This document shows positions 2,531-52,926 of a stretch of DNA of 64,000 nucleotides, one piece after another. The stretch is from Patescibacteria group bacterium (lineage in GTDB: Bacteria; Patescibacteriota; Patescibacteriia; Patescibacteriales; UBA12075). The notes under the pieces are model-generated. The model was given only the letters and a program-made list of their open reading frames with translations, made no database searches and was not told where the DNA came from. The position numbers and the translations under genes are program-made. Every line of letters begins with the position of its first letter. Position 1 is the first letter of the stretch. The stretch lies in the NCBI GenBank assembly GCA_018897195.1, contig JAHILH010000001.1, positions 348,565-412,564 of the forward strand. Direction: 5' to 3'.

Positions 2531-2565
2531 AGTTTTAATTTAATAATAAAATATATAAATTAGTA

Positions 2566-7108: not shown

Positions 7109-7140
7109 AAATTTAAATTTAATTATAAATTTCTACATTT

Positions 7141-7470: not shown

Positions 7471-7482
7471 AACATTTATATC

Positions 7483-7698
7483 TTATCGCTTTTTCAAAAA
7501 ACAGGTCTTCAACACAATGGTGCTTTTCCCAATCTTACACTCCACCTCATCGCTCTTCGACGTCAAGCGAATGCTTTTCACCACTGCCCCTCGCTTCATA
7601 TCCATCGATGAGCCTTTAACGTTTAAATCTTTTATAAGTTGCACGGAATCACCATCATTTAAAACGTTTCCATTACTGTCTTTTACAATTTCTTCCAT
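7483..7698 (-). CDS. PhnA/YjdM C-terminal-domain-like small protein
   Basis: DSNGNVLNDGDSVQLIKDLNVKGSSMDMKRGAVVKSIRL matches the PhnA C-terminal domain pattern (DSNGNxLxDGDSVxxIKDLKVKGSS). Confidence 0.6.
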   Translation of the reverse strand: MEEIVKDSNGNVLNDGDSVQLIKDLNVKGSSMDMKRGAVVKSIRLTSKSDEVECKIGKSTIVLKTCFLKKR

Positions 7699-7770
7699 AT
7701 TTTTTTCATTCTTATATTAATATATTCATCATCAAGATAAGTTATATTTCAATAACAATTATTTATTATT

Positions 7771-8514
7771 TTATTTCTGAAACACAAACAGGTGCTCATG
7801 CATTATTAATAAGAAATTACTTTCTTTCGATTTATTAACCCAAAAACCTGTCGCCTTGCAATTATGTTGTTTTTTTATAATATCCTCCTTTAATACAAAC
7901 CCTTGTTTCAAAAATCGCTCCATAACTTTAAAAGCTAAAGGCTGATACATTTTATTTCTTCTTGTGTCACCCATTAAAACAGCGCAATATTTCCCCTTTC
8001 TCAAAACACGATATAATTCTTTGGCTACTTTTTCTATTTCGTCTACAAAGGCATCAATGTCATGAATGCCAGACAAATCTTCTTTTATTTTTCCTTCACT
8101 ATATTTTATAATATCGACATAAGGCGGATGTGTAAGAACAAAATCAATTTCCTCATCCTTAATAAAATCCATATTTCGAGCATCACATTTTATTATTCTC
8201 TGTTTAGCCTTATTATCGACATCAAATTCTAAAGATTTTTTTGTTCGCTCCAATGCCTCTTCGTTGACATCAACACAAGTAATATGGCGATTTAAAATTT
8301 TCGCCTCAATCGCCGTTGTTCCACCGCCGATCATACAATCAAGTAAATGATCGCTTTCTTTTGAGTAACGCAAAATTAAATTGCGCACCACTTCCGGTGC
8401 CCAATTTCCACGCCAATCTGATTTGTGAGTAGCCCAGTTGCCACGACGCGGGAATGACCAAACGGTAGTACATTCCATATCGAATTCAGCAGGATGAAGC
8501 ATTAATTCTTTCAT
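7771..8514 (-). CDS. DNA methyltransferase (N6-adenine or N4-cytosine type), type II R-M partner
   Basis: AdoMet-binding motif LLDCMIGGGTTAIEA, followed ~60 aa later by a catalytic DFVLTHPPY ((D/N/S/H)PPY-type motif IV). Sits 13 nt downstream of a PD-ExK gene. Confidence 0.75.
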   Translation of the reverse strand: MKELMLHPAEFDMECTTVWSFPRRGNWATHKSDWRGNWAPEVVRNLILRYSKESDHLLDCMIGGGTTAIEAKILNRHITCVDVNEEALERTKKSLEFDVDNKAKQRIIKCDARNMDFIKDEEIDFVLTHPPYVDIIKYSEGKIKEDLSGIHDIDAFVDEIEKVAKELYRVLRKGKYCAVLMGDTRRNKMYQPLAFKVMERFLKQGFVLKEDIIKKQHNCKATGFWVNKSKESNFLLIMHEHLFVFQK

Positions 8515-27723: not shown

Positions 27724-27796
27724 GCCTACGTAGCTCAGTTGGTAGAGCAATGCACTCGTAACGCAGAGGTCGCCGGTTCGATTCCGGCCGCGGGCT
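27724..27796 (+). tRNA. tRNA-Thr (anticodon CGT)
   Basis: Hand-folded cloverleaf. Acceptor GCCTACG/CGCGGGC (one G-U, one A-C). D arm GCTC-AGTTGGTA-GAGC. Anticodon loop CTCGTAA. T arm GCCGG-TTCGATT-CCGGC. No encoded CCA. Confidence 0.8.
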
Positions 27797-29873: not shown

Positions 29874-30917
29874 TTAGTAATAAACGATTTGAGTTTCTAA
29901 ATCTCTTTTTCTATTTCTGGCCGTCTCCTCGGTAATCTGACCGGCGTGATATAAATTATCAATAGCTTTATTCATGGTAATCATGCCTTCTTGCGAACCA
30001 TTTTGAATGGCGTTGAAAAGTTGTTCGTATTTTCCGGTTCTAATAATATTGGAAATTGCCGCATTGTTTGTCATTATCTCTCTAGCTGCGGCCATGCCAC
30101 CGTTCTTCCCTGGCAAAAGCTGTTGGGCAATAACCGCTCGCAAAACTGACGCCAATTGATGAGCAATCTGATTCTGATTATCAACTGGAAAAAAATCAAT
30201 AATTCTTTCGATGGTTTCTGCTGCTGTCGAAGTGTGCAAGGTTGCCAAAACAAGATGTCCAGTTTTAGCTGCCGTCAGTGCCGCTGAAATTGTTTCGAGG
30301 TCGCGCAATTCCCCCACCATGATTACATTCGGATCTTGACGCAAGGCATACTTGAGCGCCGAGGCAAAACTTTCCGTATCACGGCCAATCTGTCTTTGTT
30401 CAACTATGCTTTGCTTGTCATGAAAATTAAATTCAATCGGATCTTCGATGGTTAGAATATGAGAACGTCTTTCAGCGTTAATCAAATCAATCATAACCGC
30501 TAAAGTTGTTGATTTACCCATACCCGTCGGACCAGTTACCAAAATCAAACCATCACGAAAATGCGTAAATGAGTAAATAGTTTCATTAAGACCGATTTCT
30601 TTGGCAGTCGGAATAACATTCGGCACCAAGCGAGCAGACAAACCGATTTTTCCCTCTTGATAGTGCAAATTAATTCTAAAACGGCAACCAAAAAATTCCA
30701 AAGATAAATCTAAATCCTTTTTTCTCTTAAATCTTTCTAGAGTTGTCTTGTCCAAACTATTAAAGACGGCATATTTAAGCTCGCCAAAGGGTATCTCCGG
30801 CTCTTCCAGTCTGGTTAATTCACCAAAAATACGCAAAGACGGCACGCTACCTTCAACAAGGTGCAGGTCAGAGGCTTTTCTATCTATAGCTAGTTTAAAG
30901 TAATACGGTAAATCCAT
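29874..30917 (-). CDS. pilT: Type IV pilus retraction ATPase PilT
   Basis: Walker A GPTGMGKSTT, IMVGELRD, GHLVLATLHT. The 347-aa length is typical of PilT. Confidence 0.85.
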   Translation of the reverse strand: MDLPYYFKLAIDRKASDLHLVEGSVPSLRIFGELTRLEEPEIPFGELKYAVFNSLDKTTLERFKRKKDLDLSLEFFGCRFRINLHYQEGKIGLSARLVPNVIPTAKEIGLNETIYSFTHFRDGLILVTGPTGMGKSTTLAVMIDLINAERRSHILTIEDPIEFNFHDKQSIVEQRQIGRDTESFASALKYALRQDPNVIMVGELRDLETISAALTAAKTGHLVLATLHTSTAAETIERIIDFFPVDNQNQIAHQLASVLRAVIAQQLLPGKNGGMAAAREIMTNNAAISNIIRTGKYEQLFNAIQNGSQEGMITMNKAIDNLYHAGQITEETARNRKRDLETQIVYY

Positions 30918-32804: not shown

Positions 32805-34130
32805 ATGCCGCATAAAATCAAAAAAACAATATTATTATTTGGGGATATATTTGTCTTATATTTTTCGCTGTATTCAACCTTGTTAATAAGATACCAAGAG
32901 AATATTTCAAATGAATGGGATGGTCATGTTTGGTTTTTTAGCACCATCTTTATTTTATGGATTATTATTTTTTATATTTCCAATCTGTACAATTTAAACA
33001 TCACGATTAACACCCAAAATTTTACTCTGCGCGCCCTACGCGCCGTTGGTATTTCCGCTCTCATGTCCATCCTGTATTTCTACCTCAATGCCAATGTTTC
33101 AATTTCTCCAAAAACTAATTTAGCCATTTTTACTATTATCTTTTCGATTATCTTTATTCTATGGCGTCGTCTATATAATTTATTACTCAGTTCTTATTTA
33201 CCTAAAAATAATATCGGTTTTTTGGGATACAACGAGCAAGTTAAGGAATTAATAAAAATTATCAAAGAAAGACCGCAGTTAGGCTTTGCCGTTTCTTTTG
33301 TAATCAAGAAAGAAGAAATTGACAACATAGATATCAAAAAAATCATTCAAGAAAGCCACATCTCCACTGTTATTCTAGCCTCCAATATAGACAGCTCACC
33401 AAACTTAAGACACCAACTATTCTCCTCATTGACCTTAAAAATTAATATCATTAATCTGCCAAAATTTTACGAACACATAACTGGCAAAATTCCGATTGAG
33501 GCCATTAGCCAAATGTGGTTTTTAGAAAATTTAAGCGAAGGTAGTAAGAAATGGTTTGATACGGTAAAAAGAATTTATGATATCATGTTCTCCTCCACAA
33601 TTATCGCCGTCTCTTTTCCCTTTTGGTTTATTATTGCTTTAATAATTAAAAAAGGAAGCCTTGGCCCCGTTTTTTTCGTCCAAGAAAGAACCGGTAAAAA
33701 TAACAAAAACTTTTCGGTTATCAAGTTTCGCACTATGACAGTTAATAACAACAACTACTCCCCAACTATTGGTAATGACAAACGTATTACCAGATTTGGA
33801 AATTTCTTGCGCAAAACCAGACTTGATGAATTACCGCAACTTATCAACATTCTCTTAGGTGACATGAGTTTGGTAGGGCCACGCCCAGAAAGACCCGAAT
33901 ATATCGCAGAACTAAAAAAAGAAATTCCCTTTTACGAAGAAAGAATGTTGGTCAAACCGGGACTAACCGGCTCTGACCAAATATCTGGAGAATATCATTC
34001 ACCTTCCAAGGAAGACACTTTAAAAAAATTACAATACGACCTCTATTATATAAAAAACAGGTCAATCTATCTTGACCTGTCTATTATTCTCAAAACAATC
34101 GCAACTGTTTTTAGCAAGGGTGGAATGTAA
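32805..34130 (+). CDS. Polyprenyl-phosphate glycosyl-1-phosphate transferase (bacterial sugar transferase, WbaP/EpsB-like initiating enzyme)
   Basis: [10 protein letters not shown]..., [48 protein letters not shown]. Confidence 0.88.
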
Positions 34131-34204: not shown

Positions 34205-36418
34205 TTATTTCAAATTGTCCAAAAATTCTTTTGCGTACTGTTCGATCCCTGGGTCAAGTTTAACCGCCGCACCAACGGCCTCGATAGCCTTGTCTTTTTC
34301 GCCCCTCTGCGCATAAAGCTTGGCTAGATTTATCCAATTCGCCGACGTTGGCTCAAGTGTGACAATTCTTTTAGCTAATTTTTCAACACTTTCCCAGTCA
34401 TTTTTATCAACATATCGCTTAACTAAACTTCTTACATATCCAACTGGTGACAATAAATCGGCGCCACCGGCAGATTGCACACATTCATCCAAGTATCTAT
34501 AACCCTCTGTTTCCTTTTTTAAATAAATTAAAGTTTTACCAAGATAACAAGATGAGTCATAATAAGAGGGATGTAAATCATAGGCATAGCGCAAAGTTTC
34601 GAGAGCCTTATCTGTTTCTCCTTGTGTCATATAAACCTGCGCCTTCTGATAATAAACCGGCACTCGTCCTGGTGTTGCCTCAATTGATTTATTAATTGCT
34701 TCCAAGGCTCGACTAGAATAAAACATAAAACTCTCTGATCCAATCTGATAAATACTGGCGGCAGTATTTAAAACCTGCGCCAAGGCCATTTGATTCAAAC
34801 TATCATGGGTATTGTAAGCAACATTCTTCTCAGCCAAACTAATTATATAATCCATATACTCTTTCTTTTTTTCAACAGTCAAGCCAGTTAAACTATTAGG
34901 GTCTGAAAACATTCGAATCAAACTTGTTCGACTATCACGATCAAGAACAGTGTCATAGCTCAAGGCCTTCTTGTATGCCGCAATTAATAACTCGGGGTTT
35001 TTAGCCACCTTCTGGCCATCAATAGTACCAACCAACATCTTCCAGGGTTTAACATTATATTGATAAGCAATTGTCAACATAATAATCCCAGAAATCAACA
35101 AGGCATAAATCTCCTTATTGTCAAAAGTTGTGTCTCCACCATCAATATCACTTACACCATTTTCCACATCTTCACCTTTTTTATTTAACCAATAAACATA
35201 GCCCAAAGAAATCATTAACATTTGATAAGTTGGAAAAGAATCAAATACGGCTAGATTTTGAATAAAGTAACCAACAAAAAGAGAGGTTAAAATAATAAAC
35301 TCATGCAAATCAATATAATCTTTTCGATACCCTCTTATTAAATAATAAGCAAGGGCTACAAAAATAGATAAATACGTCAAAAGACCTAAGAAGCCAGTAG
35401 TGGACACAATATCGATTATATTATTATGGGCTCGATCAAAATAAGTATCACCTCTTGTAATATCATAAAAGGCCGGATCAAAATATTTATCAAAAATATA
35501 AGCATAATTACCATGACCAACGCCCAAGAACGGATGGTTTCTTAAATCCTTGATTCCGCCCCTCCATGAAATAAGGCGAGTTTGAAAAGTCGCCTTTTGA
35601 GTACTAATTGCACTGATATTACTAAATGGTGGCGTGTTTTTAACAAAATCACTATTCCTGTTCAAAAAGACAAAAGCTGTTAAAGCAATAAGAAAAACCA
35701 GAATTGAAAAAGTAGCAATACGTATTTTTTTATTTTTATACATGACGCCATAAAGAAATGCCATCAACATAAAACTAACACCCAAACCAACAAGCGCGCC
35801 AGTGGTTTGCAATTTCACAAATTCAAAATAAAAAATCAAATTCGGCAACAAATACAACCAGCGTAAACTGTTGTCTTTTTTTTCTTTTATAAATAAAAGA
35901 ATAGTGAAATAAATATTAAAAATTAAATAGCCACTAACATAAGCAGTGTTACCGATATAGCTATAAGCCTGCGCGCCCTCCCCAAGTCCGTTAAGACTGA
36001 CCAAGACAGCAATCACCAAAGATGTTACATATAACCACTTCCAATCAGTCCACGACTTAAAGGCTGTAATAATAACTAAATAAAGAATGAAAAAATGTAA
36101 AATATGAAAAGCACCCAACATTCTCTCAACATCGCCGAACATGCTTAAATTATAATCAACTCCGGTAAAAGATGAGATTATCATTATAGAGAAAAAGGCC
36201 ATCATGCCGAAAGTGATATATGACTTCTTGGGGCGATACTGCGGATATTTCACAACAAAGGCTACCAAAATAATAAATAAAACTTCCATTAAAATATTAA
36301 AAGGAATTTGCTTGGAAGTAATATAAGGGAATAAAAGATTCTTAAAAACGAAAAAAACGAAAAACAACGACACGTAAACGCCAATCTGTAAAATCTTTAA
36401 ATACATCTTTTGACTCAT
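34205..36418 (-). CDS. O-antigen ligase/polymerase-like (Wzy_C) polytopic membrane protein fused to a C-terminal TPR domain
   Basis: More than 10 TM segments with an HPFLGVGHGNYAYIF loop. The C-terminal ~280 aa contain TPR-like repeats (e.g. AQVYMTQGETDKALETLRYAYDLHPSYYDS, AKLYAQRGEKDKAIEAVGAAVKLDP). Confidence 0.7.
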   Translation of the reverse strand: MSQKMYLKILQIGVYVSLFFVFFVFKNLLFPYITSKQIPFNILMEVLFIILVAFVVKYPQYRPKKSYITFGMMAFFSIMIISSFTGVDYNLSMFGDVERMLGAFHILHFFILYLVIITAFKSWTDWKWLYVTSLVIAVLVSLNGLGEGAQAYSYIGNTAYVSGYLIFNIYFTILLFIKEKKDNSLRWLYLLPNLIFYFEFVKLQTTGALVGLGVSFMLMAFLYGVMYKNKKIRIATFSILVFLIALTAFVFLNRNSDFVKNTPPFSNISAISTQKATFQTRLISWRGGIKDLRNHPFLGVGHGNYAYIFDKYFDPAFYDITRGDTYFDRAHNNIIDIVSTTGFLGLLTYLSIFVALAYYLIRGYRKDYIDLHEFIILTSLFVGYFIQNLAVFDSFPTYQMLMISLGYVYWLNKKGEDVENGVSDIDGGDTTFDNKEIYALLISGIIMLTIAYQYNVKPWKMLVGTIDGQKVAKNPELLIAAYKKALSYDTVLDRDSRTSLIRMFSDPNSLTGLTVEKKKEYMDYIISLAEKNVAYNTHDSLNQMALAQVLNTAASIYQIGSESFMFYSSRALEAINKSIEATPGRVPVYYQKAQVYMTQGETDKALETLRYAYDLHPSYYDSSCYLGKTLIYLKKETEGYRYLDECVQSAGGADLLSPVGYVRSLVKRYVDKNDWESVEKLAKRIVTLEPTSANWINLAKLYAQRGEKDKAIEAVGAAVKLDPGIEQYAKEFLDNLK

Positions 36419-39425: not shown

Positions 39426-40103
39426 TTAAATTAATTTATATAAATTCTCATATCCCAAATGAAATAGACCGTCAATTATAGAAAGGTTAGGCACAAACTC
39501 TTTACCAAATTGCGTATAGACTGGATGATTAAATTTTTGCCAAATAATTTTTAAACCCTCTTTTTCACAGCGTGCCTCATCTAAATAACTGCGAGCACCG
39601 CCACCACTAATATAAGTGTCGCAACCAACTGAGCGACAAATTTCAATTATTCCATCAGTACTTTTTTTGGCTCTATCAATAGAAAGCTCACTACTTGATA
39701 TGATTTTTTTTGCAGGATCAAACTTTTTAAAAATCATTTTCAATAACGCGGTATTTATATCCGTCAATTTTGCCAAATTTTCATCCAAATAAATTTTTTC
39801 CAAATCAGCGTAGATTTCCTTGAAAAAAGGTGCCTTGCGATATGTTTGCTGGATTAAGCCAAGGTGTTTTTTTACAAAATCACGATTGGCGATTTTTGCC
39901 TCGAGAATTAAATCACCCAGGTGAATCGAAACGGGAATGGTTATCCAGGCACCCTGATCACCGACTTTAATTTGATTTCGGTTGTGATAATCATTCTTGC
40001 TGTATTGAGCCGTATCGTATAACACAAAAACATCGGCCTGTTTGAATTTATTAAAAAAGCCCAAGTATGGTAAAAAATTTGGTTGATGGATTGTGCAAAT
40101 CAT
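39426..40103 (-). CDS. WbqC-like family protein
   Basis: MICTIHQPNFLPYLGFFNKFKQADVFVLYDTAQYSKNDYHNRNQI. Start set at ATG 40103, 1 nt downstream of the stop of the upstream gene. Confidence 0.75.
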   Translation of the reverse strand: MICTIHQPNFLPYLGFFNKFKQADVFVLYDTAQYSKNDYHNRNQIKVGDQGAWITIPVSIHLGDLILEAKIANRDFVKKHLGLIQQTYRKAPFFKEIYADLEKIYLDENLAKLTDINTALLKMIFKKFDPAKKIISSSELSIDRAKKSTDGIIEICRSVGCDTYISGGGARSYLDEARCEKEGLKIIWQKFNHPVYTQFGKEFVPNLSIIDGLFHLGYENLYKLI

Positions 40104-40104
40104 A

Positions 40105-40737
40105 TTAAACAATAAGTTGATGAATTTCAAAACCCTCGTAGTGTTTTCCGCCTTGGTAAATCTGAAATCCCAAAAATTCAGCCAAGCCCTTGATAGCACG
40201 GTCGGCCATATAAACATTCTCGCCCTGTGACACATGCAGTTGCACGGCTTGCATTTTAATATCTATGTGATTACTAATATCAACAAAAAATTTTGGATTA
40301 AAATCACGCGTTGACGATGGCGTTTGGTAAAAAAGAACGGCCGGAACAAAGCGCGCTGCCGATATTGCCGCCCTAGACGCATTACGATGATCCTGGTGCG
40401 TGTCATTGGTGGAATTCACGATAACTAATGTAGGTTTAAAATCATTAATCGCCTTTTCGATAATACTGATAGTTGTAACGCCATCTGATATTTTGGTATC
40501 TGGCAATTCGCCAAAATATGTTTTGGCTGACAATAACTTAGCTGACGCAATTGCCTCTTTTTTTCTCTTATTCTCCTTACTTTTTGCACCACCAAAACTT
40601 AAAACCACAAAACCGATTTTACTACCATTCGCATGATACTTTGCAAGCGTCCCAAAGCATCCAAGCTCAATATCGTCCGGATGCGGACCAATTGCTAAAA
40701 TTCTATCCATTATTTTATTATCATCTGTAATTTTCAT
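40105..40737 (-). CDS. PIG-L/LmbE-family N-acetylglucosaminyl deacetylase
   Basis: ILAIGPHPDDIELGCFGTLAK and THQDHRNAS. Confidence 0.85.
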   Translation of the reverse strand: MKITDDNKIMDRILAIGPHPDDIELGCFGTLAKYHANGSKIGFVVLSFGGAKSKENKRKKEAIASAKLLSAKTYFGELPDTKISDGVTTISIIEKAINDFKPTLVIVNSTNDTHQDHRNASRAAISAARFVPAVLFYQTPSSTRDFNPKFFVDISNHIDIKMQAVQLHVSQGENVYMADRAIKGLAEFLGFQIYQGGKHYEGFEIHQLIV

Positions 40738-41777
40738 ATTTTTTTAAAATTTAATAAATTATTATAATGAATCTTGGCAACTGACTCGCTGTCATGATTA
40801 TTTAAGATATACTGATAATTTTTTTCCACTATATCATTTTTAAATTTATCATCAGTTAGCAATTTTATCGCTAAACCTGGCATCTCCGCCACACTAGTTT
40901 TGAGCGTTTCATAATTATCAAAACTGACAAGCGGTCTCCTTAATGCCATAACTTGCATTGGCAAAAGGCTCAGGGCGCCAATGCTAAAATCACCAAAAAC
41001 TAAATCCGCACCTCGCAATTTAGCAGCGAGTTCCTCCTTGCTCATATAGCCATGCCAAAAATAAGTCTTAGAATCATTCAGCTTCCGTTTGTATAAATCT
41101 GTTAACTCTCCTGATGCGATCAAGTGAAGCGTAGCCTTGGAGAAATGTTTTTTTATTGTATTTTCAAAAATATCAATTGCTACTTCTGGTTTTTTGTCAC
41201 CATGCAAACGTGCAGCCAAGAAGCATGCCGGCTCACCTTCCAATTTAATTACTCCACCCTCTGGCACAAACAAAGAAGTATCAATCGGATTTGGTAACCA
41301 AGTTGGCTTTCTACCACACCACTTTGTAATCGGTTCCACTAAGTCCGGAGTCGAACAATAAAAAATATCGGCTAATTGAATATTTTTCTTAATCTTATTT
41401 TCAATTAATTTATCCAAAAATAAACCAAGGCGTTGCTTGGTCGGACTATGTAAATCTTTCAGATAAAGTTCGCCACAAACCCCGATGTCAAAACCATGGA
41501 TTTCAAATATGGAAATTTGCCCAGGAATTTTTTTAAATAACAAGAAGGCTTCAGCCCTATTTAGATGTATAATACCATAATTTTTCATTTTTCCAAAAAA
41601 ATAATAAAACCAAATAGTCGCCATATTCAAGGGAACGTATAAAAAAGCGGGTAGACGGACATTGGTTACACGAGGCGTAAAATCAAAGTCAAATTCCTTA
41701 TCAAGGTAGCGCTCAAAGAGCTGCTTTTGAAAAAAGAAAGAATTAATCATGTATTTAATTTTTTTAGTATTTGTCAT
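40734..41777 (-). CDS. Putative GT-B-fold glycosyltransferase (divergent)
   Basis: The C-terminal half (FWHGYMSKEELAAKLRGADLVFGDFSIGALSLLPMQVMALRRPLVSF) resembles GT1/GT4 C-domains. 4-nt overlaps with both neighbours. Confidence 0.4.
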   Translation of the reverse strand: MTNTKKIKYMINSFFFQKQLFERYLDKEFDFDFTPRVTNVRLPAFLYVPLNMATIWFYYFFGKMKNYGIIHLNRAEAFLLFKKIPGQISIFEIHGFDIGVCGELYLKDLHSPTKQRLGLFLDKLIENKIKKNIQLADIFYCSTPDLVEPITKWCGRKPTWLPNPIDTSLFVPEGGVIKLEGEPACFLAARLHGDKKPEVAIDIFENTIKKHFSKATLHLIASGELTDLYKRKLNDSKTYFWHGYMSKEELAAKLRGADLVFGDFSIGALSLLPMQVMALRRPLVSFDNYETLKTSVAEMPGLAIKLLTDDKFKNDIVEKNYQYILNNHDSESVAKIHYNNLLNFKKI

Positions 41778-43387
41778 TTTTTTTGATATATATAATAAGG
41801 AAAGGGATCGCGAAATGGAAAAATATTTTTTACGTTTGGAATAATTGCTATTTTTTCAAAACCAATTTGACGCAATTCCCCATCTATCATCTTTGGTGAT
41901 GCAAAATATGTTAATAATTTTCCAAAACTTTGATCAACCAATCTATAAGAATTTGATTTTAATAAGCCAATTATGTTTTTCCACGAAATGAGTAAATACC
42001 GGCGGTTAACACAAAGACTGTTGTGGGAAGAAAAAATAAAATATCCGCCTGGCTTTAATTTTTTATATATCTGATCAAGCGCTCGTCTTCTTTCAGATAA
42101 CGGATATAAATAGTCTAGTCCATTATAGGAAAAAAAGGCACAGTCTAGTGACCTATCCTGAATATTTTCATCAGTATCCAAATCTAATACATTCAAAACT
42201 TTAAAATAATCAACATATTTTCCCTTGTCAAAATTTTTAGCGCGATTTATTAAACCGTCAACAACGTCAATGCCCAAAATATTTTTATAACCATCTTTCG
42301 CTAAAAAAATAGTTGTTCTTCCGGCACCACACCCTATATCAAGAATTTTTGCATCAGGAGATAAATGAATTTGTGTAAAACATTCTTGTTCAGCTGGCAT
42401 TAAATAATGCTTACCGTCATAAACCATCAATGATCTTTTTACACTATAAGCCTCATTACTGGAAAAGACCTCATAAATATCAGACAAAATAAATTTCCAA
42501 TATAGTAATAAAGTAATCACCTGTTTTAATATTGTTTTTATTGCCAGTCCAACGCCAAATTTATTTTGAGAAAAATTTAATAGACGATATTTTTTTACAT
42601 ATTTATCATCAGAGAAAATAAACTGAAATCCTAGGGGCATATATAAAATCTTAGCGGCACTAATCATGGTGCCTGCCTCTTCGGTTAACCTACGACAATT
42701 GGCCGTTTCGGCTGGTAAAAAAATTGTCGGTTCTTTCCCAAAATGAACATACCGAGGATTATTAACTTCAAACTCATTTTTCAGCTCCTTATTAAGTCGA
42801 TCCATTAATGACCAAGAAACATCTATCGACCGTCGCAAAAGAAGCTCAACCTCTGCAAGTGTAATATCTGGATAACAATTACGCGCATCGACAATGTCTT
42901 TGTTCAAAAGAATTACTTCTTCAAAGTTTGCATACCCAAAAAACTCCACATATCGAAAATCATTTAAATTCTTCAGGATAGTTGCAATATTTTTTTCACG
43001 GGCGCGTTTTAACCGATAATAATTGCGCAAAAAACTCACAAAAAACATGCTAGCCATTTTGACTAAGTTAGCCTTCTTTAGGCTTGCCGGTTCGGTGGTT
43101 TTTACCATTAACTGTTCGCCAAATATTAATTCCATTTGCGAATATGAATAATATTGAGACTGATGGCCAAACTCCTCCCTGGTCACAATTCGACGAACAT
43201 CAACTAGTGGACTTAAATAAGAAAACCGCGCATTCAAGTTGATATTGGTTTTTTCCGAAGCAACTATCAGTATATCAATGTCAGACAATTCATTCCCGTC
43301 ATTAACACCAACCGAATAAACCGCAACCAATTTTAATTCATTGGCCAGGTTTATTATTTTTTCGATTGTTGAATCAAATTTATTCAT
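41774..43387 (-). CDS. Fusion protein: N-terminal Pol-beta-superfamily nucleotidyltransferase domain + C-terminal class I SAM methyltransferase
   Basis: NTase: VAVYSVGVNDGNELSDIDILIVAS (GS...DxD-type). MTase: ILDIGCGAGRTTIFLAKDGYKNILGIDVV and LKPGGYFIFSSHN. Confidence 0.65.
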   Translation of the reverse strand: MNKFDSTIEKIINLANELKLVAVYSVGVNDGNELSDIDILIVASEKTNINLNARFSYLSPLVDVRRIVTREEFGHQSQYYSYSQMELIFGEQLMVKTTEPASLKKANLVKMASMFFVSFLRNYYRLKRAREKNIATILKNLNDFRYVEFFGYANFEEVILLNKDIVDARNCYPDITLAEVELLLRRSIDVSWSLMDRLNKELKNEFEVNNPRYVHFGKEPTIFLPAETANCRRLTEEAGTMISAAKILYMPLGFQFIFSDDKYVKKYRLLNFSQNKFGVGLAIKTILKQVITLLLYWKFILSDIYEVFSSNEAYSVKRSLMVYDGKHYLMPAEQECFTQIHLSPDAKILDIGCGAGRTTIFLAKDGYKNILGIDVVDGLINRAKNFDKGKYVDYFKVLNVLDLDTDENIQDRSLDCAFFSYNGLDYLYPLSERRRALDQIYKKLKPGGYFIFSSHNSLCVNRRYLLISWKNIIGLLKSNSYRLVDQSFGKLLTYFASPKMIDGELRQIGFEKIAIIPNVKNIFPFRDPFPYYIYQKK

Positions 43388-44318
43388 CTTTTTTGAAAAA
43401 TAATTTCATAAATTTATTAGCATCCTTGTCAATCCTTGCACGATACGCAGGAATAATTTCTAATAATTTTTGCAAAGTTTCATTTCCTAACATAAACATA
43501 AAAGTGGGATTATATAATATATAGCCCGCAAATGGTCCATGCATTGGTAGTTCAGCTGTATAATTATTCACGGCAATAATTTGAGAAAAGGCATTCTCGG
43601 GGGAAATCTTTTCAATCACAGCCTCAGCCCCGCGACTTATAATATATAATTTTTTTATTAAGTAACTATCCAAACAATTATCGCCCGCGCCTTCCGTATA
43701 AAAATAAACTCTGTCACCGGAAATAACAACGTAGTTTTCCGTAAGTATTTTTGCCCCTGGATTATCTTTCATTAACTGCTTAATCAGAGTGCTTTTGCCA
43801 GCCCCTGGTAATCCTAAAAACACATATGCCTCGTTATTAACAGAAATTGCAGCCCCGGACAACACTTCTTTATTTTGGCCTTGTTTTATTTTCATGAAAA
43901 TTAAGTTTTGAATAATTAACCTGACTACAAATCTATAATAATGTTTTTGCGTATCAAGACCGCGGAAAAATAGCAAATTCGCAAAATGTTTAAATAAATT
44001 CTTTTTAAAACGCACTTCACTAGACCAAAGACTGTCTTCAAACTTAATCGTTGCATCAACTTCTTGATACTGAAAAACATAAGAACCTTTTTGCATCCCC
44101 GCCTTCTCGCCCAAAAATTCATCAAGTGATTCTGATTTTCTGTCCACCTTAAATCTAAAGCCTTTTTCAAAATTAAAAACTAAATCAATTACCGGCTCAC
44201 TTACCAAAGTAACTAGCTCGAAACCCTTGAAATACCTTTTTGTAAAATCTAAAAATGCATCATTATTTGAATTAATGCACACATTAATGCCCCAAAAATT
44301 TAAAATTAATTTTTCCAT
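43380..44318 (-). CDS. P-loop protein resembling HPr kinase-related (HprK C-terminal-like) kinases
   Basis: LSGAAISVNNEAYVFLGLPGAGKSTLIKQLMKD resembles the HxAAVxxxGxxxLxxGxSGxGKSTL block of HprK-related kinases. Start set at MEKLILNFWG (ATG 44318), 10 nt after the upstream stop. The 3' end overlaps the next gene by 8 nt. Confidence 0.4.
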   Translation of the reverse strand: MEKLILNFWGINVCINSNNDAFLDFTKRYFKGFELVTLVSEPVIDLVFNFEKGFRFKVDRKSESLDEFLGEKAGMQKGSYVFQYQEVDATIKFEDSLWSSEVRFKKNLFKHFANLLFFRGLDTQKHYYRFVVRLIIQNLIFMKIKQGQNKEVLSGAAISVNNEAYVFLGLPGAGKSTLIKQLMKDNPGAKILTENYVVISGDRVYFYTEGAGDNCLDSYLIKKLYIISRGAEAVIEKISPENAFSQIIAVNNYTAELPMHGPFAGYILYNPTFMFMLGNETLQKLLEIIPAYRARIDKDANKFMKLFFKKDE

Positions 44319-44328
44319 ATACTTGATA

Positions 44329-45417
44329 TTAATTAATATACAAACTTGCCACACCTTCTTCATCCAAAAGGTTATCTCCGTACTTCTTGGCTTCAGATAT
44401 TTTTTCATTCAATAATTCACTTCCCTGGCTATTTACTTCGATTAGAGCTTGCAACTCTTGCACATCTTTATATAAAAACACCTGCTTTTCAAATTCTTTA
44501 AATACTGGTAAATCAGTCAAAAACACCGGCGTATTTGATACAAAGGCTTCCAGCAAAACCAGCGGGGCTGACATGGTATTATTTTCATCCAGTGCCGGCA
44601 TAATAACAGCATCAACCTCTTGATAAAATTTTACCATATTATCGATATTTCTTCTAAACTCAATATTTTCAATACCTATTTTTTTCACAGAGCTTATTAA
44701 ATTTTGAACAGCTCCCTCTTCACGCTCGGAAAATTTCCGCAACGCGATAATTATTTTTAAGTCGGAAAGACGTTGGGCTAATTCAATTACAATATTAACT
44801 CCAGCTGAAGTATCTGGATTACTAAGGTAGGCAATAGTTTTAATAACCGGCAAATCTTTTGCCGTGGATAAATTTTCTAAAAATATTTTTTTATTAGGTA
44901 AAACAGTGGCAACTGTTATTTTACTTGCCTCAACTCCCATTTTAATTAATTGATTCTTCAGATACAAGGTTCTGGTAAAAATATGATCTAATCTTCCATG
45001 AAATAGACGAATCCAAAAACCACCGATTCCACTCGTCTCCCTGGTGGAAAAAATCATAACCCTTACGCGAATATTCTTATTAAAAAACACCAACCAACAA
45101 AGCGAGAATAAAAAAGACCAATCTAGCGAAAATACCAAAACCAAATCAATTTCATTTTTTTTAAAGAATTTAAGGACACGAAAACCATCACCAATCCAAG
45201 TTAAATATTTTATCAATCTTATTTTTCCCGAATTTAAATAATAAAAAATATTAAGGCCAGCGATTGGCTCAAGCGGCTCGCCATATGAACACTGACTAAC
45301 GACTAACACCTCGGGAACAATTTTGGACAATTCCGTGCTTACAGCCCAAGCGCTTTTCTGAATACCCTCAATAAATGGCTTATGCATCTCTGGGGCAAAT
45401 ATTGCAATTTTTGACAT
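44329..45417 (-). CDS. Glycosyltransferase group 1 (GT-B)
   Basis: MSKIAIFAPEMHKPFIEGIQKSAWAV and MPALDENNTMSAPLVLLEAFVSNTPVFLTD. Confidence 0.7.
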   Translation of the reverse strand: MSKIAIFAPEMHKPFIEGIQKSAWAVSTELSKIVPEVLVVSQCSYGEPLEPIAGLNIFYYLNSGKIRLIKYLTWIGDGFRVLKFFKKNEIDLVLVFSLDWSFLFSLCWLVFFNKNIRVRVMIFSTRETSGIGGFWIRLFHGRLDHIFTRTLYLKNQLIKMGVEASKITVATVLPNKKIFLENLSTAKDLPVIKTIAYLSNPDTSAGVNIVIELAQRLSDLKIIIALRKFSEREEGAVQNLISSVKKIGIENIEFRRNIDNMVKFYQEVDAVIMPALDENNTMSAPLVLLEAFVSNTPVFLTDLPVFKEFEKQVFLYKDVQELQALIEVNSQGSELLNEKISEAKKYGDNLLDEEGVASLYIN

Positions 45418-45418: not shown

Positions 45419-47176
45419 TTATAATTTAAATAATTCTTGAGTTTTATTCATAATCAACTCAGGAGTATATATTTTACTAATAAATTCTCTGCATTTCATA
45501 TTATGTTCATGCATTATTTGTTCGTTTTTAAGATAATACAAAATATTTTTTGCCAATTTTTCATGGTCATATACAGAATGAAACAAAGCCTTGTCCTTAA
45601 ATACGCCGGAAAATGACAATGTTGCAGGCAGACAAAGTGCGTTACCAGAAAGAGCTGCCTCATAAGCCGCCAAACACTGCCCCTCGGAGATAGATGAATT
45701 TAAATATATTTTTGTTTTTTGCAAATATGGCAATAAGTGGTCATGCGCAACAAAGCCGTGAATTTTTACAACATTGGCAAGGTCATGTTCTTTTATAAGT
45801 TTATCAAATTCGGGGTCACGCACCTCACCCACCACATCCAAGCGAATGTCGAGTAATGTTGCTTTAACAATTGCCAGCGCTCGAAGTATGGTGTTGATAT
45901 TTTTATCAGGGGTCACATTTCCAAGAAAAATTAAACCCGCTCTCGTGCCATCAATATTCTCTCTGGAAAAATGTTGCACATCAATCGCCAACGGCAGTAC
46001 AACAATCTTCTTCTCGTTAACACCTTGTTTAACTAAAAAATCTTTTTCCTCATCAGAGATAACACGAATTTTTTTAAAAAATTTAAAAACAAAATTCTCA
46101 ATTCGCTGCTTTAATAATGTTTTTCTCTGAACCGAGTCATGACCCATGAATACCGCTTTTCGGCAAATAAAAGGGACTAAGAATGACTGCCAGGTAAAAG
46201 TATTAACATAAATAACTGATAGCCTATTTTTATATAAATATTTTAAAAATTGCCACACATTCGCATAAGCCGTCATCTTAATATCATTATTAACTATACC
46301 AACTTTGTGAAAATCGTTTCCAATGTCCGCCCTTGCATCAATCGATAATATTCCCACCTGATATCCCAATAATTTTGCCGCCTTCAAGGCCTGCAAGTGA
46401 TAATTTTCATTAGCGGACAATGTGCGCATCTGTTGATGATAGCCCCAAATCATAAAGATAAAATCTTGCCGAGTCTTTTTGGCATATATCAAAATGTATG
46501 GCGAAAAAAACGATACAGAAGAAATCTTTAAATATAGACTATAAAGTATTTTTTTAAAAAAAGACGCCTGACTCTTATTAGCTTGTTTAATATCTTGATA
46601 TTGAACAGGTCTCACTTTTACAATTTCAAAACCACGCTGCTTCAAAATTTTGATTGCCTTGAGATAGGAGAAGGTAAAAAAACTATATCCCTGCGCCCTA
46701 CTCCTCCTATAACCTCTTGAGATAAAAGGATTGAACGAATTTCGCACATCAAAAACAAAATAACCATCATCTTTCAAAACATTATTAGAGCTACGTAGCA
46801 CTGATTCAATCTCTTTTTTTCCGGTTAGATTGTGAAGTGTATTGCATACCACCAAAAAATCAAACTTGGGAAAGTTATTTTTTTTTAAATAACCCAAAAC
46901 ATCACCACATTCCAGAGATAGCTTTGATGCGGAAATCTCTAATCGTGCCGCTTGAAGCATTTCCTCAGAGGTGTCGACGCCAGTTAATTCTATCTGAGAA
47001 TTCTTGTCGGAAATTTTTTTTAATATGCGACCATTACCACATCCAAGCTCAACAACTCGCGACCCGGATTGCTTTGATTGGCCAAGAATAAATGAGGCAA
47101 CATCATTTCTGATAATTTCCTCAAGGTAATTGGCTAAGCCGTAGGTGTTTGCTATTTTACTCCAATACTCTTGCAT
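45419..47176 (-). CDS. Fusion protein: N-terminal class I SAM methyltransferase + C-terminal group 1 glycosyltransferase
   Basis: MTase: VVELGCGNGRILKKISD and VVCNTLHNL. GT: LIFLGNVTPDKNINTILRAL and LNSSISEGQCLAAYEAALSGNALCLP. Confidence 0.7.
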   Translation of the reverse strand: MQEYWSKIANTYGLANYLEEIIRNDVASFILGQSKQSGSRVVELGCGNGRILKKISDKNSQIELTGVDTSEEMLQAARLEISASKLSLECGDVLGYLKKNNFPKFDFLVVCNTLHNLTGKKEIESVLRSSNNVLKDDGYFVFDVRNSFNPFISRGYRRSRAQGYSFFTFSYLKAIKILKQRGFEIVKVRPVQYQDIKQANKSQASFFKKILYSLYLKISSVSFFSPYILIYAKKTRQDFIFMIWGYHQQMRTLSANENYHLQALKAAKLLGYQVGILSIDARADIGNDFHKVGIVNNDIKMTAYANVWQFLKYLYKNRLSVIYVNTFTWQSFLVPFICRKAVFMGHDSVQRKTLLKQRIENFVFKFFKKIRVISDEEKDFLVKQGVNEKKIVVLPLAIDVQHFSRENIDGTRAGLIFLGNVTPDKNINTILRALAIVKATLLDIRLDVVGEVRDPEFDKLIKEHDLANVVKIHGFVAHDHLLPYLQKTKIYLNSSISEGQCLAAYEAALSGNALCLPATLSFSGVFKDKALFHSVYDHEKLAKNILYYLKNEQIMHEHNMKCREFISKIYTPELIMNKTQELFKL

Positions 47177-47180: not shown

Positions 47181-47834
47181 TTATTTATTAATAATTTTTT
47201 TAATTAAATAAAGTGCTACGCGAATAAATTTGAAACGCTTCAAATATCTGTAATAGACATATTTAGTCATACTGCAATTTTCAGTAATTTCTGTCTGGCT
47301 AATAGCCCATTTCTGCTTAAAGAAGGCGACATTGGCGAGTGCTGAATCCCTTGCATTCAAATAAATAAGTAATCCTAGATTAAAGAAAATAAAATCTTGG
47401 CTTTTTAAAAACTCAATAGCCTGCCAAATCAGTAAATAATTGGGACAATATTTTTTTTCAGAATGAACCGTTGCCGACAATCCAAGAAACGCTGTTTTTT
47501 CTTTGCCAAAAAAAGAATTTGCAGTTTTTGGCAAGATTAAAACAAAAGATACAGCTTGATTATTTCGATAAGCCACTAATAAATAATTTTCTGGATCCGC
47601 CAATAAAAGATCATAGCCCTTGGAATAAGGTACATACTCATTTTTTAGTAATTGTTTGAGCATGACACGACATTCATCAATAACTCCCACTTCGGCATTG
47701 CCATAATAAATTTGGACACTGACATTGTTTTTTTCAGCATACCTAATTTCAGTTCTACACTTAATCCGCTTAAACAATTCAGTCAACTCGCTTCTTAAGT
47801 CTATGTAGCCTATGGTGTATTTTAATATAGCCAT
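47181..47834 (-). CDS. GNAT-fold FemAB-like acyl/aminoacyl transferase (putative)
   Basis: LLVAYRNNQAVSFVLIL ... LLIWQAIEFLKSQDFIFFNLG ... FFKQKWA resembles the FemAB-like / Acetyltransf_6 family. Confidence 0.4.
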   Translation of the reverse strand: MAILKYTIGYIDLRSELTELFKRIKCRTEIRYAEKNNVSVQIYYGNAEVGVIDECRVMLKQLLKNEYVPYSKGYDLLLADPENYLLVAYRNNQAVSFVLILPKTANSFFGKEKTAFLGLSATVHSEKKYCPNYLLIWQAIEFLKSQDFIFFNLGLLIYLNARDSALANVAFFKQKWAISQTEITENCSMTKYVYYRYLKRFKFIRVALYLIKKIINK

Positions 47835-51047: not shown

Positions 51048-51959
51048 TTAGCAATGATCGTGCCCACAACCGCAATCATCATCTTCTTTATGATAATTAT
51101 GCAAGAAGTCACCATAAACCCCCTTAACCACTTCAATGTCCTTACCGCTACCAAGCAAAAGGCTCAGATTCTTGGATTCGATTGCTTCCAAAATATTCAA
51201 TCCCAAAACATCTTCCTTTGCCAAATCAGCATACATTTGCCTAAAGGCGGTATAATCTTTCAGGAAACAATGTCCGCCTGCACCACGTCCCAATATGCCT
51301 AAAGTTTCATGTACGGGGCTCATGTGCGCTTTACCGATTCTTGGATCAGCTGTGATTGCCTGTTGCACCGGCTCCCAATCACATTCCAGAGACTTTGTTA
51401 AGTCATATAAAATATTGGCGTAAATAATCTTGATATAAAGAAAAACGTTAGCACCGTATTTAACTACTTCTGCTTCACGGGCCTTGCATATCAACTTCAG
51501 CGGCGCCTCTGGCAAAATCGACAAAACTTCTTCGGCTTTCATACGATATTCATCATTATCAACCGGCATGCCAATAATATTGCGAGTTGGATGAGCAGCA
51601 TCATAAGCCGCATTTTTTTCTGTCAAAAACTCCGGAGAATGCAAAACAAAGATATCTGGAAAAGTATCTTGCAAATTTTCCGTTGTTCCTGGCAGGATGG
51701 TTGATTTAATTACCGCCGTTTTACCACAACCAACCTCTGTTAGCGCATCTCTCACAATCGAATAATCAAAACCCTCAGGTGTTGTCGGGGTCGGCACGGC
51801 GATGAAAACGATATCACAATCTGCAATCAGTTCACGATTGCCCTTATATTGATCTTCTAAACCATAGCGCACAACCTCATAACCCCTGGCCTCAAAATCA
51901 TTAGCATAATTTTTACCAATCCAGCCTTGACCGATAAAACCGATTAATTGTTTAGTCAT
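51048..51959 (-). CDS. UDP-glucose/GDP-mannose dehydrogenase-family protein, short form with Cys/His-rich C-terminal tail
   Basis: IGFIGQGWIGKNYA, VFIAVPTPTT, VIKSTILPGTT, SPEFLTEKNAAYD, GGHCFLKD (catalytic-Cys block). At 303 aa it seems to lack the usual C-terminal UDP-binding domain and ends HKEDDDCGCGHDHC. Confidence 0.6.
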   Translation of the reverse strand: MTKQLIGFIGQGWIGKNYANDFEARGYEVVRYGLEDQYKGNRELIADCDIVFIAVPTPTTPEGFDYSIVRDALTEVGCGKTAVIKSTILPGTTENLQDTFPDIFVLHSPEFLTEKNAAYDAAHPTRNIIGMPVDNDEYRMKAEEVLSILPEAPLKLICKAREAEVVKYGANVFLYIKIIYANILYDLTKSLECDWEPVQQAITADPRIGKAHMSPVHETLGILGRGAGGHCFLKDYTAFRQMYADLAKEDVLGLNILEAIESKNLSLLLGSGKDIEVVKGVYGDFLHNYHKEDDDCGCGHDHC

Positions 51960-51993: not shown

Positions 51994-52803
51994 TTACGAA
52001 ATCACTTCTTCCATATCTTTAATAATCTTTCGGTACCACCCTTTTGGTCTATTTTCATCTTTTATTTGCAAAATAAATTTTTTGCCAGCCAACTTAGCGA
52101 CCGCGTACCCTGGCAAAGCAATTTCACCTAAGCAATAACATTTTACCTTGTCAGACCAATGAATCCATTTCCTAGTCTGATAAAATATTTTGATAAAATT
52201 TAAAAATCTATTTTTAGTTCTGACAACTAAACGAAAATTAGGTATCTCCATTTTATAATCTTTCTTTCCAAAAACAATGCCGCGATACTCACAGTCTTCG
52301 GCCGGTTTATAATCAACCACATCCTCCTCGTTGACTAGAATAAAAAAACGTTGTTTATCTCTTTCACCAAATTTCTTTTTTAATTTTTTTTCTCGATGCT
52401 CTTTCTCAAAAATAACAAATTTATTCATTAAAAAACTCCAAATCGATAATAAGATTGTACTTACCAACTGCGCCAATAAATAATAAATATGGAATTTGCG
52501 CACCGCTTCATGAACAATTACCGCATTCAAGACCAGATTAGTTGTTCCAACAAATAAATATATCGACAACTGTCTGGGAATTTTTTCAATGTTCGCATTT
52601 CTAAATGTCCAAAATTTTTGCAAAGAAAAACTAATTGAAAAGGCCACTGCAAATGCTATTGTCGACGACAGTATCAACCCCATTCTCCAAACCCCATGCA
52701 ATAAATACAATAACCACAGTTCGGCTAAGGTTGCTGTCGTGCCTGATATAGCAAACTTAATATAAATCTTATTCTTATGTAATAAATTTAACAGGTAATC
52801 CAT
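51994..52803 (-). CDS. GtrA-family membrane protein fused to a ~130-aa C-terminal soluble domain of unknown function
   Basis: IKFAISGTTATLAELWLLYLL ... LQKFWTFRN (GtrA-like) with four TM segments, then a Lys-rich linker and an unassigned domain. Confidence 0.65.
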   Translation of the reverse strand: MDYLLNLLHKNKIYIKFAISGTTATLAELWLLYLLHGVWRMGLILSSTIAFAVAFSISFSLQKFWTFRNANIEKIPRQLSIYLFVGTTNLVLNAVIVHEAVRKFHIYYLLAQLVSTILLSIWSFLMNKFVIFEKEHREKKLKKKFGERDKQRFFILVNEEDVVDYKPAEDCEYRGIVFGKKDYKMEIPNFRLVVRTKNRFLNFIKIFYQTRKWIHWSDKVKCYCLGEIALPGYAVAKLAGKKFILQIKDENRPKGWYRKIIKDMEEVIS

Positions 52804-52839: not shown

Positions 52840-52926
52840 CGGAAGGAAAGGGATTTGAACCCTTGAAGGCTTTGACACCTTACCCGCTTTCCAAGCGAGC
52901 GCACTCGGCCACTATGCGACCCTTCC
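52840..52926 (-). tRNA. tRNA-Ser (anticodon GGA)
   Basis: Hand-folded. Acceptor GGAAGGG/TCCTTCC. Anticodon stem CTCGC/GCGGG with loop TTGGAAA. Long variable arm AAGG-TGTCAAAG-CCTT. T arm AAGGG-TTCAAAT-CCCTT. Discriminator G. 87 nt. Confidence 0.85.

Follow-up and report, generated by a model that had tools for sequence, protein, structure and literature searches.

The closest characterised analogue of the genes analysed here is the PsmK/PsmN pair of lasso-peptide biosynthesis. PsmK phosphorylates the C-terminal Ser of a lasso peptide (PMC6993621). PsmN is a nucleotidyltransferase (NTase) resembling ANT(2''), its DxD motif is essential, and it is required for adding one or more hexoses to the phosphate (PMC6993621, PMC8498205); it is either a new kind of glycosyltransferase (GT) or the maker of a substrate for one, and the authors could not tell which (PMC6993621). 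We analyse a stretch of 64,000 nucleotides (nt) of contig JAHILH010000001.1 from a Patescibacteria group bacterium (assembly GCA_018897195.1), hereafter the window, in which two overlapping genes on the minus strand encode a P-loop protein, the predicted kinase, and a 537-aa protein that joins an NTase-fold domain to a class I S-adenosylmethionine (SAM) methyltransferase (MTase) domain. Like PsmK/PsmN and the PadeK/ThcK lasso tailoring systems, the window combines a predicted kinase of the HprK superfamily with an aminoglycoside-NTase-like Pol-beta NTase that carries a DxD motif (PMC6993621, PMC8498205). Unlike the lasso system, in which the substrate is a ribosomal peptide and the genes lie with those for a lasso cyclase and B1/B2, this pair sits in a polysaccharide operon, and no family of ribosomally synthesised peptides that carry post-translational modifications (RiPPs) is matched in our locus scans, which covered 20 operon proteins against Pfam and 10 of these also against NCBIfam. 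The window kinase is far below the HprK_rel_A and HprK_rel_B cut-offs, the window NTase does not match NTP_transf_5, and MTase and GT-B-like proteins are not among the fusion partners that PMC6993621 and PMC8498205 describe for lasso clusters. We find that the kinase and NTase genes always occur together, in one case fused, and therefore very probably work as one sugar-decorating unit.

Other systems share parts of this design. WbdD of the Escherichia coli O9a O-antigen also has a linked kinase and class I MTase in a glycan pathway, and its product is a phosphate-linked methyl decoration (PMC3482155). The window pair differs from WbdD in the PEPCK/HprK fold predicted for its kinase, in the NTase that stands between kinase and MTase, in an MTase that is dispensable and in a Wzx/Wzy-type locus. 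WbdD itself has a eukaryotic-type protein-kinase (ePK) fold, works in an ABC-transporter pathway as a chain terminator, and has no NTase. In its presumed logic (phosphorylate, link to a nucleoside diphosphate (NDP), transfer) the window locus also resembles LicA/LicC/LicD, HldE, FKP and the Campylobacter O-methyl-phosphoramidate (MeOPN) enzymes Cj1415-1418, and kinase-NTase fusions occur in HldE and FKP. Those systems use GHMP, APH or APS-kinase-type kinases and GlmU/RmlA-type NTases, and the resemblance is best described as functional analogy, not homology. An earlier reading of the DNA made from the sequence alone (the sequence-only reading) had drawn on both MeOPN and lasso peptides. The lasso precedent for an HprK-like kinase with an NTase is real (PMC6993621, PMC8498205). 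The MeOPN comparison holds as an analogy only: the folds of kinase and NTase here differ from those of the MeOPN enzymes, and the locus scans contain no MeOPN glutamine kinase, gamma-glutamyl-phosphoramidate hydrolase, GlmU-type cytidylyltransferase or APS-kinase-like kinase, nor any match to a LicD, NTP_transferase or MeOPN family. We found no literature example of an HprK-type kinase with an ANT-like NTase in a polysaccharide operon or of that combination with MTase or GT-B fusion partners, and nothing usable on WbqC function or on HprK-like kinases in polysaccharide loci. Fold-level comparison places both proteins in known superfamilies; neither is assigned to a family.

The features of the gene pair are, in window coordinates:

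43380..44318, minus strand: P-loop kinase gene, 312 aa; open reading frame (ORF) with its start set from homologues
43788..43814, minus strand: Walker A motif GLPGAGKST, residues 169-177; GLPGxGKST is invariant in 11 of 11 family members
43380..43387, minus strand: stop/start overlap of 8 nt, ATGAATAA, between the kinase gene and the NTase-MTase gene
41774..43387, minus strand: NTase-MTase fusion gene, 537 aa; NTase-fold domain, hydrophobic helix and class I MTase
42563..43387, minus strand: NTase-fold domain and helical domain, residues 1-275, from AlphaFold2 (AF2) and Foldseek
43274..43285, minus strand: DxD metal-binding motif S35-D36-I37-D38 (SDID); S35, D36 and D38 invariant in 10 sequences
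43199..43201, minus strand: D63 in the following beta strand (E62-69), candidate for the third catalytic carboxylate, from its invariance and the AF2 strand
42473..42559, minus strand: hydrophobic/amphipathic helix, residues 277-305; Kyte-Doolittle mean 1.68 over 19 residues
41774..42460, minus strand: class I SAM MTase domain, residues 310-537; Pfam matches above cut-offs
42311..42346, minus strand: MTase motif I ILDIGCGAGRTT (GxGxG)

Both ORFs lie on the minus strand where the sequence-only reading had placed them (43380..44318 and 41774..43387, with the 8-nt overlap), and the peptides that it quoted, GLPGAGKST, SDID and ILDIGCGAGRTT, are all present. They are genuine genes and not chance ORFs, since both have homologues at 30-66% identity on other contigs. 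The first ATG would give a P-loop ORF at 43380..44408 (minus strand); its homologues are 308-327 aa long and have their N-terminus at the equivalent of M31 of that version, so 44318 is the likely start and the protein has 312 aa. In the overlap ATGAATAA, the kinase stop codon TAA is at 43380-43382 and the ATG of the NTase-MTase gene at 43385-43387. The kinase and NTase genes also overlap, by 4-14 nt, in L001, L002, L006 and L007 (4/4 other loci with separate genes that were compared). The stop of the 537-aa gene in turn shares 4 nt (ATGA) with the start of the gene that follows.

The AF2 model of the kinase, for which the input is an 11-sequence family alignment, has a pLDDT of 89.9 and a pTM of 0.89, and it predicts an N-terminal beta domain, a long helix and a P-loop domain laid out as in the fold of phosphoenolpyruvate carboxykinase (PEPCK) and HprK. 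The best Foldseek match in the PDB is ATP-PEPCK (1aq2/1os1, E 1e-6, probability 1.0), aligned over about 380 columns (378) that span both halves of the kinase. The next 17 matches are all HPr kinase/phosphatase, including 1knx, 2qmh and 1kkl, with E-values from 1e-3 to 1e-2. Judged on this model, the PEPCK/HprK fold assignment is solid. With ATP-PEPCK and HPr kinase/phosphatase the protein shares the P-loop fold, and PEPCK aligns over the N-terminal as well as the nucleotide-binding parts; it differs in having 312 aa against ~540 aa for PEPCK, is only 9-11% identical and lies in a context that is neither gluconeogenic nor that of the phosphotransferase system. At the level of sequence families, HprK-related kinase B gives a sub-threshold match to 10/11 family members and HprK-related kinase A to 8/11 (both at E<=0.1; the best kinase A match has E 5e-8), and the HprK_rel matches cover only a strand, the P-loop and the next strand. 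The curated NCBIfam cut-off for HprK-related kinase A/B (TIGR04352/TIGR04355) is 200 bits, and the window kinase scores 18.5-18.7 bits with TIGR04352 and 21-22 bits with TIGR04355. Weak PEPCK_ATP and PEPCK NCBIfam matches, below cut-offs, are found in 6-7 of the 11 family members. The Pfam scan gives generic P-loop matches only, all sub-threshold, and PDB searches with single sequences and profiles give P-loop or generic matches only; the kinase reaches no curated Pfam or NCBIfam family cut-off.

Besides the Walker A motif, the kinase family has many invariant basic and aromatic residues in the N-terminal half and the long helix (K110, H111, Y127, Y128, R129 and R133), a set that would be compatible with an anionic substrate site. 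In a by-eye alignment, the equivalent of HprK Asp178/179 (the kinase-2 Asp of PEPCK) is [E/D/G/H]-N, with N195 nearly invariant, and a nearly invariant E209-G210 lies downstream. The P-loop protein is presumably a kinase rather than another NTPase.

The NTase domain is predicted to have the Pol-beta nucleotidyltransferase core fold (AF2 model with pLDDT 86.5 and pTM 0.86). Its best Foldseek match is the spectinomycin adenylyltransferase ANT(9) (6xz0/6sxj, E 1e-3, probability 1.0), with an alignment of ~250 columns over the NTase core and the helical domain. MntA-type MNT proteins follow; probabilities for ANT(9) and MntA are about 0.84-1.0, with 0.95 for 2rff and only 0.57 for 1no5. Like ANT(9)/AadA and MntA, the domain conserves the DxD motif and the third carboxylate; unlike them, it has only 14% identity, a G-[VIL] in place of the G-S motif, and neither a resistance nor a toxin-antitoxin context. 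This deviation from hG[GS] is general, the residue after G27 being V, I or L and not G or S. The S-D-x-D is likewise invariant in 44 distant NTase relatives, and G27, D63 and R65 are also invariant in the NTase family. Since D36, D38 and D63 are all invariant, the predicted metal-binding triad is intact. In total, ~36 NTase positions are invariant across sequences that are 32-44% identical.

Against Pfam, the window NTase domain scores 16.9 bits with Polbeta (PF18765, cut-off 26.9) and 13.9 bits with NTP_transf_2 (PF01909, cut-off 21), and six NTase homologues have no match to either at E<=5. NTP_transf_5 (PF14907), which we take to be the NTase family of lasso clusters, has no match at E<=5 in seven N-domain sequences and none at E<=0.01 among the 44 distant relatives. 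The LicD/fukutin type (PF04991) has no Pfam match, and no FKRP/LicD-type structure is in the top 50 Foldseek matches. PDB sequence searches with the domain, single or profile, find nothing, and the domain reaches no curated Pfam or NCBIfam family cut-off. It is also found as a stand-alone protein of ~290 aa.

Between the two domains of the 537-aa protein, AF2 models residues 279-307 as a long helix. The stand-alone NTase protein of L001 has the same kind of hydrophobic segment at its C-terminus, and residues 277-305 are probably a membrane-association element or a linker. In the MTase domain, Pfam Methyltransf_25, _11, _31 and _23 are all over cut-off (49.3 bits for Methyltransf_25, cut-off 27; 47.3 bits for Methyltransf_11, cut-off 21.2). 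The PDB profile search with this domain gives generic class I methyltransferases only: an uncharacterised archaeal methyltransferase ranks first, the alignments cover little beyond the SAM-binding core, and the WbdD methyltransferase domain is among the matches, weakly, at E 4e-6. Phosphoethanolamine N-methyltransferases led the single-sequence PDB list only and rank no better than uncharacterised methyltransferases in the profile search, and a phosphoethanolamine-to-phosphocholine reading was dropped. The cassettes of L001 and L002 lack the MTase domain, and L010 encodes the orthologous MTase in a gene of its own, two genes upstream of that for the kinase. As the cassette persists in L002 without any methyltransferase, methylation is not its core chemistry, and the methyltransferase is an optional accessory, not a core member.

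How far the pair is conserved can be read from its relatives. In a word-index search of 5.8 billion clusters, the fusion protein has 10 relatives and the kinase has 11. A HMMER profile of the NTase domain finds 79 proteins at E<=1e-3 among 1.84 billion representatives; about 28 of these cluster representatives, at E<=1e-30, form the core NTase family, and the remaining matches are a broader uncharacterised family with a PGISDIDLI motif and without a Pfam assignment. By hhalign, this family of distant NTase relatives (A5) shares homology with the core family at a probability of 99.8%. No kinase accompanies it in the single context examined (L011/L012), and the kinase pairing is therefore specific to the cassette of candidate phyla radiation (CPR) bacteria. 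One source names Candidatus Parcubacteria for the window protein. The scan of GTDB genomes with the NTase profile returns a single locus, in a Parcubacteria metagenome-assembled genome, and the metagenome scan with the kinase profile returns just two weak, unrelated P-loop matches (L013 and L014); both scans are pattern-based and probably under-sample the family. The cassette is apparently rare and restricted to CPR bacteria.

Cassette synteny was determined by tBLASTn of the window cassette proteins against all fetched loci. The conserved block reads 217-aa protein, MTase-GT4, GT (362 aa), kinase, NTase with or without MTase, GT-B-like protein (347 aa), PIG-L, WbqC, (FkbM MTase), GT4. It is found in the window, L001, L002 (=L003), L004 (=L005=L008), L006, L007 and L010; L009 is a short contig that carries the central part of the block only and ends inside the fused gene. 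The kinase gene lies immediately upstream of the NTase gene in 8/8 independent loci, and the order kinase, NTase, GT-B-like is the same in all seven loci whose contig passes the NTase gene (7/7). L004/L005 had been considered as an exception to the co-occurrence, and this was ruled out by tblastn and by the ORF list of L008. On this higher-GC Parcubacteria contig, a spurious 184-aa reverse-strand ORF displaces the kinase gene in the public gene call; an intact kinase homologue with the motif GLSGSGKST is at 7097..7975 (+) in L004, 697..1575 in L005 and 13..933 in L008.

Several fusions tie the members together. NTase plus MTase is the commonest architecture, and the NTase stands alone in L001, P0014 and others. 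In three lineages the NTase is fused to the 347-aa GT-B-like protein (P0022, the 661-aa protein of L002; P0042; P0043). Kinase, NTase and MTase share a single reading frame in L009 (P0028), where the true start is upstream of the called start and the kinase part is therefore complete. L010 (Logan ERR14064715) has in-frame TGA codons at conserved Gly positions, its Walker A reading T*LG*S*KST, and its tBLASTn scores are higher under code 25 for all cassette genes matched. Since L010 makes sense only with UGA read as Gly (code 25), it comes from a different CPR lineage; by its codon usage the cassette is present in a code-25 lineage of the Gracilibacteria/Absconditabacteria type.

These results support part of what had been claimed from the sequence alone, the specific product not included, and neither of the two outcomes named there as refuting it was observed. 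The idea of functional coupling gains from the adjacency, the overlaps and the fusions, and the pair recurs outside the window genome, in 8/8 independent loci and as a fusion in one. The MTase does not keep the place it had been given in a core trio, since L001 and L002 have none in their cassettes and L010 encodes it on its own, although its assignment to the class I SAM methyltransferases is borne out by Pfam matches above cut-offs. For the kinase, the PEPCK/HprK fold is recovered by Foldseek, the named HprK-related families are not reached at their cut-offs, and no other well-defined family claims the P-loop protein. Similarly, the Pol-beta label of the NTase stands for the fold and the carboxylate triad and falls short of the Pfam Polbeta and NTP_transf_2 cut-offs. 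The tightest partner had been overlooked: it is the downstream 347-aa GT-B-like protein, NTase-fused in three lineages.

Two matches outside the cassette are recorded here as separate observations. L014 carries at 2239..3084 (+) a 281-aa HprK-like P-loop protein (GLPGAGKST ... SDNL). Its neighbours in this polysaccharide locus of high GC content are a GT4, a DegT-type aminotransferase and a gene resembling Wzz/BY-kinase, a hint that CPR bacteria are not alone in having HprK-fold kinases in glycan loci. L011 (5156..9536) and L012 (JGI 3300002465 / 3300000229) carry two tandem distant NTase paralogues of 410 and 394 aa, adjoining two polysaccharide-deacetylase-like genes, GT2s, Wzx and a lysine-2,3-aminomutase-like radical SAM gene, in a genome with Por_Secre_tail proteins of the type IX secretion system (T9SS). 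In P0080 such a distant NTase is fused to Polysacc_deac_1+DUF3473, and this distant family seems repeatedly to partner with sugar deacetylases.

Around the pair, the other members of the cassette are:

40734..41777, minus strand: GT-B-like protein, 347 aa; the most conserved partner, its start overlapping the fusion-gene stop by 4 nt
44329..45417, minus strand: GT4-like glycosyltransferase, 362 aa; directly upstream of the kinase gene, with a 10-nt gap
40105..40737, minus strand: PIG-L family sugar de-N-acetylase (Pfam PIG-L 8.8e-23); in every locus with enough flank
39426..40103, minus strand: WbqC-family protein (Pfam WbqC 2.5e-64); conserved synteny, start at an internal Met
45419..47176, minus strand: MTase-GT4 fusion, 585 aa; cassette member
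47181..47834, minus strand: conserved 217-aa protein, first gene of the conserved block; possibly GNAT/Fem-like

The 347-aa protein is 54-62% identical across the Parcubacteria-type loci and 44-46% identical in L010. Its Glyco_trans_1_4 and Glycos_transf_1 Pfam matches are weak and below cut-off; these GT-B matches, together with inspection of motifs, suggest a transferase role. For the WbqC gene, the first-ATG ORF (39426..40235, minus strand) would overlap the PIG-L gene by 131 nt; the homologues and the Pfam match place the real start at an internal Met (40103), and the gap to the PIG-L gene is then 1 nt. The WbqC protein has no solved homologue in the PDB sequence search. A homologue of the 217-aa protein is present in every locus whose flank extends to that position. 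It has no Pfam or NCBIfam match, and its profile weakly matches the GNAT aminoglycoside acetyltransferase 5f46 (E 0.03) and the FemX-type Lipid II:glycine glycyltransferase 6snr (E 0.39); the L010 homologue has a faint FemAB mark. This protein may transfer an acyl or aminoacyl group to the amine that the PIG-L deacetylase sets free.

Between 49649 and 37617, twelve genes of the minus strand follow one another at distances of -8 to +10 nt and therefore form one tight operon. The window locus also encodes Bac_transf, Wzy_C+TPR, Wzx, GT4s, a hexapeptide acyltransferase, an epimerase, a UDP-sugar dehydrogenase and GtrA, and it is a Wzx/Wzy-type glycan assembly line. Further along, at 34205..36418 (-), 32805..34130 (+) and 29874..30917 (-), is a Wzy_C+TPR, Bac_transf and T2SSE region, in which the 737-aa Wzy_C+TPR protein adjoins the initiating Bac_transf gene near the T2SSE pilus ATPase. 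The Wzy_C family comprises O-antigen ligases and polymerases and also protein O-oligosaccharyltransferases of the PglL/PilO type, so the glycan could end on a protein such as a pilin. The homologue of UDP-glucose/GDP-mannose dehydrogenase at 51048..51959 (-) has only 303 aa; its N-domain match begins at profile position 72, no C-terminal domain is reported, and the gene could be truncated or split or have a wrong start. Rfam matches in the window are limited to two tRNA genes, at 27724..27796 (+) and 52840..52926 (-), the second just past the GtrA gene (51994..52803).

From the folds and motifs, the adjacency, the consecutive fusions, the dispensable MTase and the glycan context we infer a relay of phosphorylation, nucleotidylylation and transfer; that this relay activates a precursor to feed the Wzx/Wzy-type glycan is our tentative preference, held with rather more doubt than assurance. 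In step one, the PEPCK/HprK-fold protein would use ATP to phosphorylate a hydroxyl of a small precursor, a sugar or polyol. In step two, the Pol-beta-fold NTase would condense the phosphomonoester with a nucleoside triphosphate to give an NDP-linked activated form. In step three, the 347-aa GT-B-like protein would move the activated group, on the cytoplasmic side of the membrane, to a lipid-linked repeat unit. The class I MTase of the fusion would methylate the group, only in the lineages that carry it. The order of these reactions, a free small molecule as first substrate and the identity of that substrate are all inferred. We favour precursor activation because kinase-NTase fusions are a hallmark of sugar activation and salvage, the bifunctional kinase/nucleotidyltransferases HldE and Bacteroides FKP being typical of such routes; because GT-B enzymes use NDP-linked donors; and because the gene order would equal the reaction order. 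CPR bacteria depend heavily on salvage, and the hydrophobic helix after the NTase domain fits work at the membrane. Several points weigh against precursor activation. We know of no Pol-beta-fold synthase of NDP-sugars or NDP-alcohols that is paired with an HprK-fold kinase. ANT(9) and MntA, the nearest folds, transfer a nucleoside monophosphate (NMP) to hydroxyls of a finished substrate and not to phosphomonoesters. The kinase has an apparent Asn (N195, by the by-eye equivalence) where HprK has its catalytic Asp; the 347-aa protein has neither a Pfam match at cut-off nor a PDB sequence match; and the L009 fusion, seen on one contig of 2.9 kb, could result from a frameshift in the assembly. The only characterised pair of an HprK homologue with an NTase, PsmK/PsmN, acts on a peptide (PMC6993621). 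That the cassette is, more narrowly, a so far undescribed route to NDP donors built entirely from folds not known for that job, acting on a salvaged sugar or polyol, optionally methylated, with a divergent GT-B protein using up the donor, and apparently confined to CPR, seems to us possible and rather doubtful.

The pair might instead tailor the glycan itself, the kinase placing a phosphate on a hydroxyl either at the chain end or in the lipid-linked repeat unit, and the NTase and GT-B-like protein elaborating the phosphate, either by phosphoglycosylation as in PsmK/PsmN or, with the MTase present, as a methyl-phosphate of the WbdD kind; we consider this credible enough to keep in view and on the whole unlikely. 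Precedents speak for it: PsmK, an HprK homologue, phosphorylates a Ser hydroxyl and PsmN is needed for the hexose(s) on that phosphate (PMC6993621, PMC8498205), and in the O9a O-antigen the terminal mannose receives a phosphate and then a methyl group from WbdD (PMC3482155). The WbdD methyltransferase domain is among the PDB matches of the MTase profile (E 4e-6), the hydrophobic helix suggests a membrane location, and the ANT-like fold acts on oligosaccharide-like substrates. However, with an MTase that is optional and that two lineages lack, the core function cannot be a methyl-phosphate cap; the locus has Wzx and a Wzy_C gene, with no ABC transporter or WbdD-type ePK kinase among the scanned proteins; the NTase does not match NTP_transf_5 (taken to be the family of the lasso NTases); and kinase-NTase fusions are better known from precursor-activation pathways. 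Another chemistry, to which we give little credence, takes the structural match at its word: as in ANT(9), a sugar-hydroxyl adenylyltransferase and the best two-domain match, the NTase would attach an NMP such as AMP to a hydroxyl of a sugar, where the NMP would be either the finished decoration or a leaving group, and the P-loop protein would be an accessory NTPase or regulator and not a kinase of the pathway. The apparent Asn N195 at the position of the catalytic Asp of HprK, which leaves kinase chemistry unproven, speaks for it. The strict adjacency, the stop/start overlap and the in-frame fusion to the P-loop protein point rather to consecutive chemistry, the invariant Walker A together with K110, H111, Y127, Y128, R129 and R133 suggests a real substrate site, and we know of no nucleotidylylated surface glycan.

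The target could also be a protein or peptide instead of a glycan, such as a pilin or a RiPP-like peptide as in lasso clusters, which we think improbable. All characterised protein kinases of the HprK family act on Ser of proteins or peptides (HPr, lasso precursors), and a T2SSE pilus ATPase and a gene of the Wzy_C family, with its protein O-oligosaccharyltransferases, are nearby. But in every locus the pair is embedded among glycosyltransferase and sugar-modifying genes, sometimes with a GT-B-like fusion, the pilus genes lie outside the conserved block, and the 20 scanned locus proteins include no lasso cyclase, PqqD/B1, B2 protease or RiPP family (small ORFs were not examined). An MNT-type antitoxin or defence component, to which the MntA antitoxins among the Foldseek matches of the NTase core might point, or a decaying remnant without function, has a negligible chance of being right. 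Matches of the scanned neighbours include no HEPN-type family, and neither the P-loop protein nor the NTase domain has a PADLOC match, the sole one being mad2 on residues 339-458 of the 537-aa protein, in the methyltransferase region. The domain is ~275 aa long with a conserved helical half of its own and ~36 invariant positions, and the synteny is kept across two CPR lineages, one of them using code 25; conservation and context effectively refute a role in defence or toxin-antitoxin, and decay.

Hardly any work has been done on the surface glycans of CPR (Patescibacteria) bacteria, which live attached to host cells. The loci described here define a conserved CPR glycan cassette, from eight independent loci of which at least one belongs to a code-25 lineage, and its two least conserved genes represent protein families without a Pfam or NCBIfam model. 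The practical value is modest until the product is identified. The pairing of kinase and NTase, with its GT-B-like fusion, in a polysaccharide operon is an independent system for PsmN-type chemistry, and the cassette could reveal a new phosphate-linked or NDP-activated decoration.

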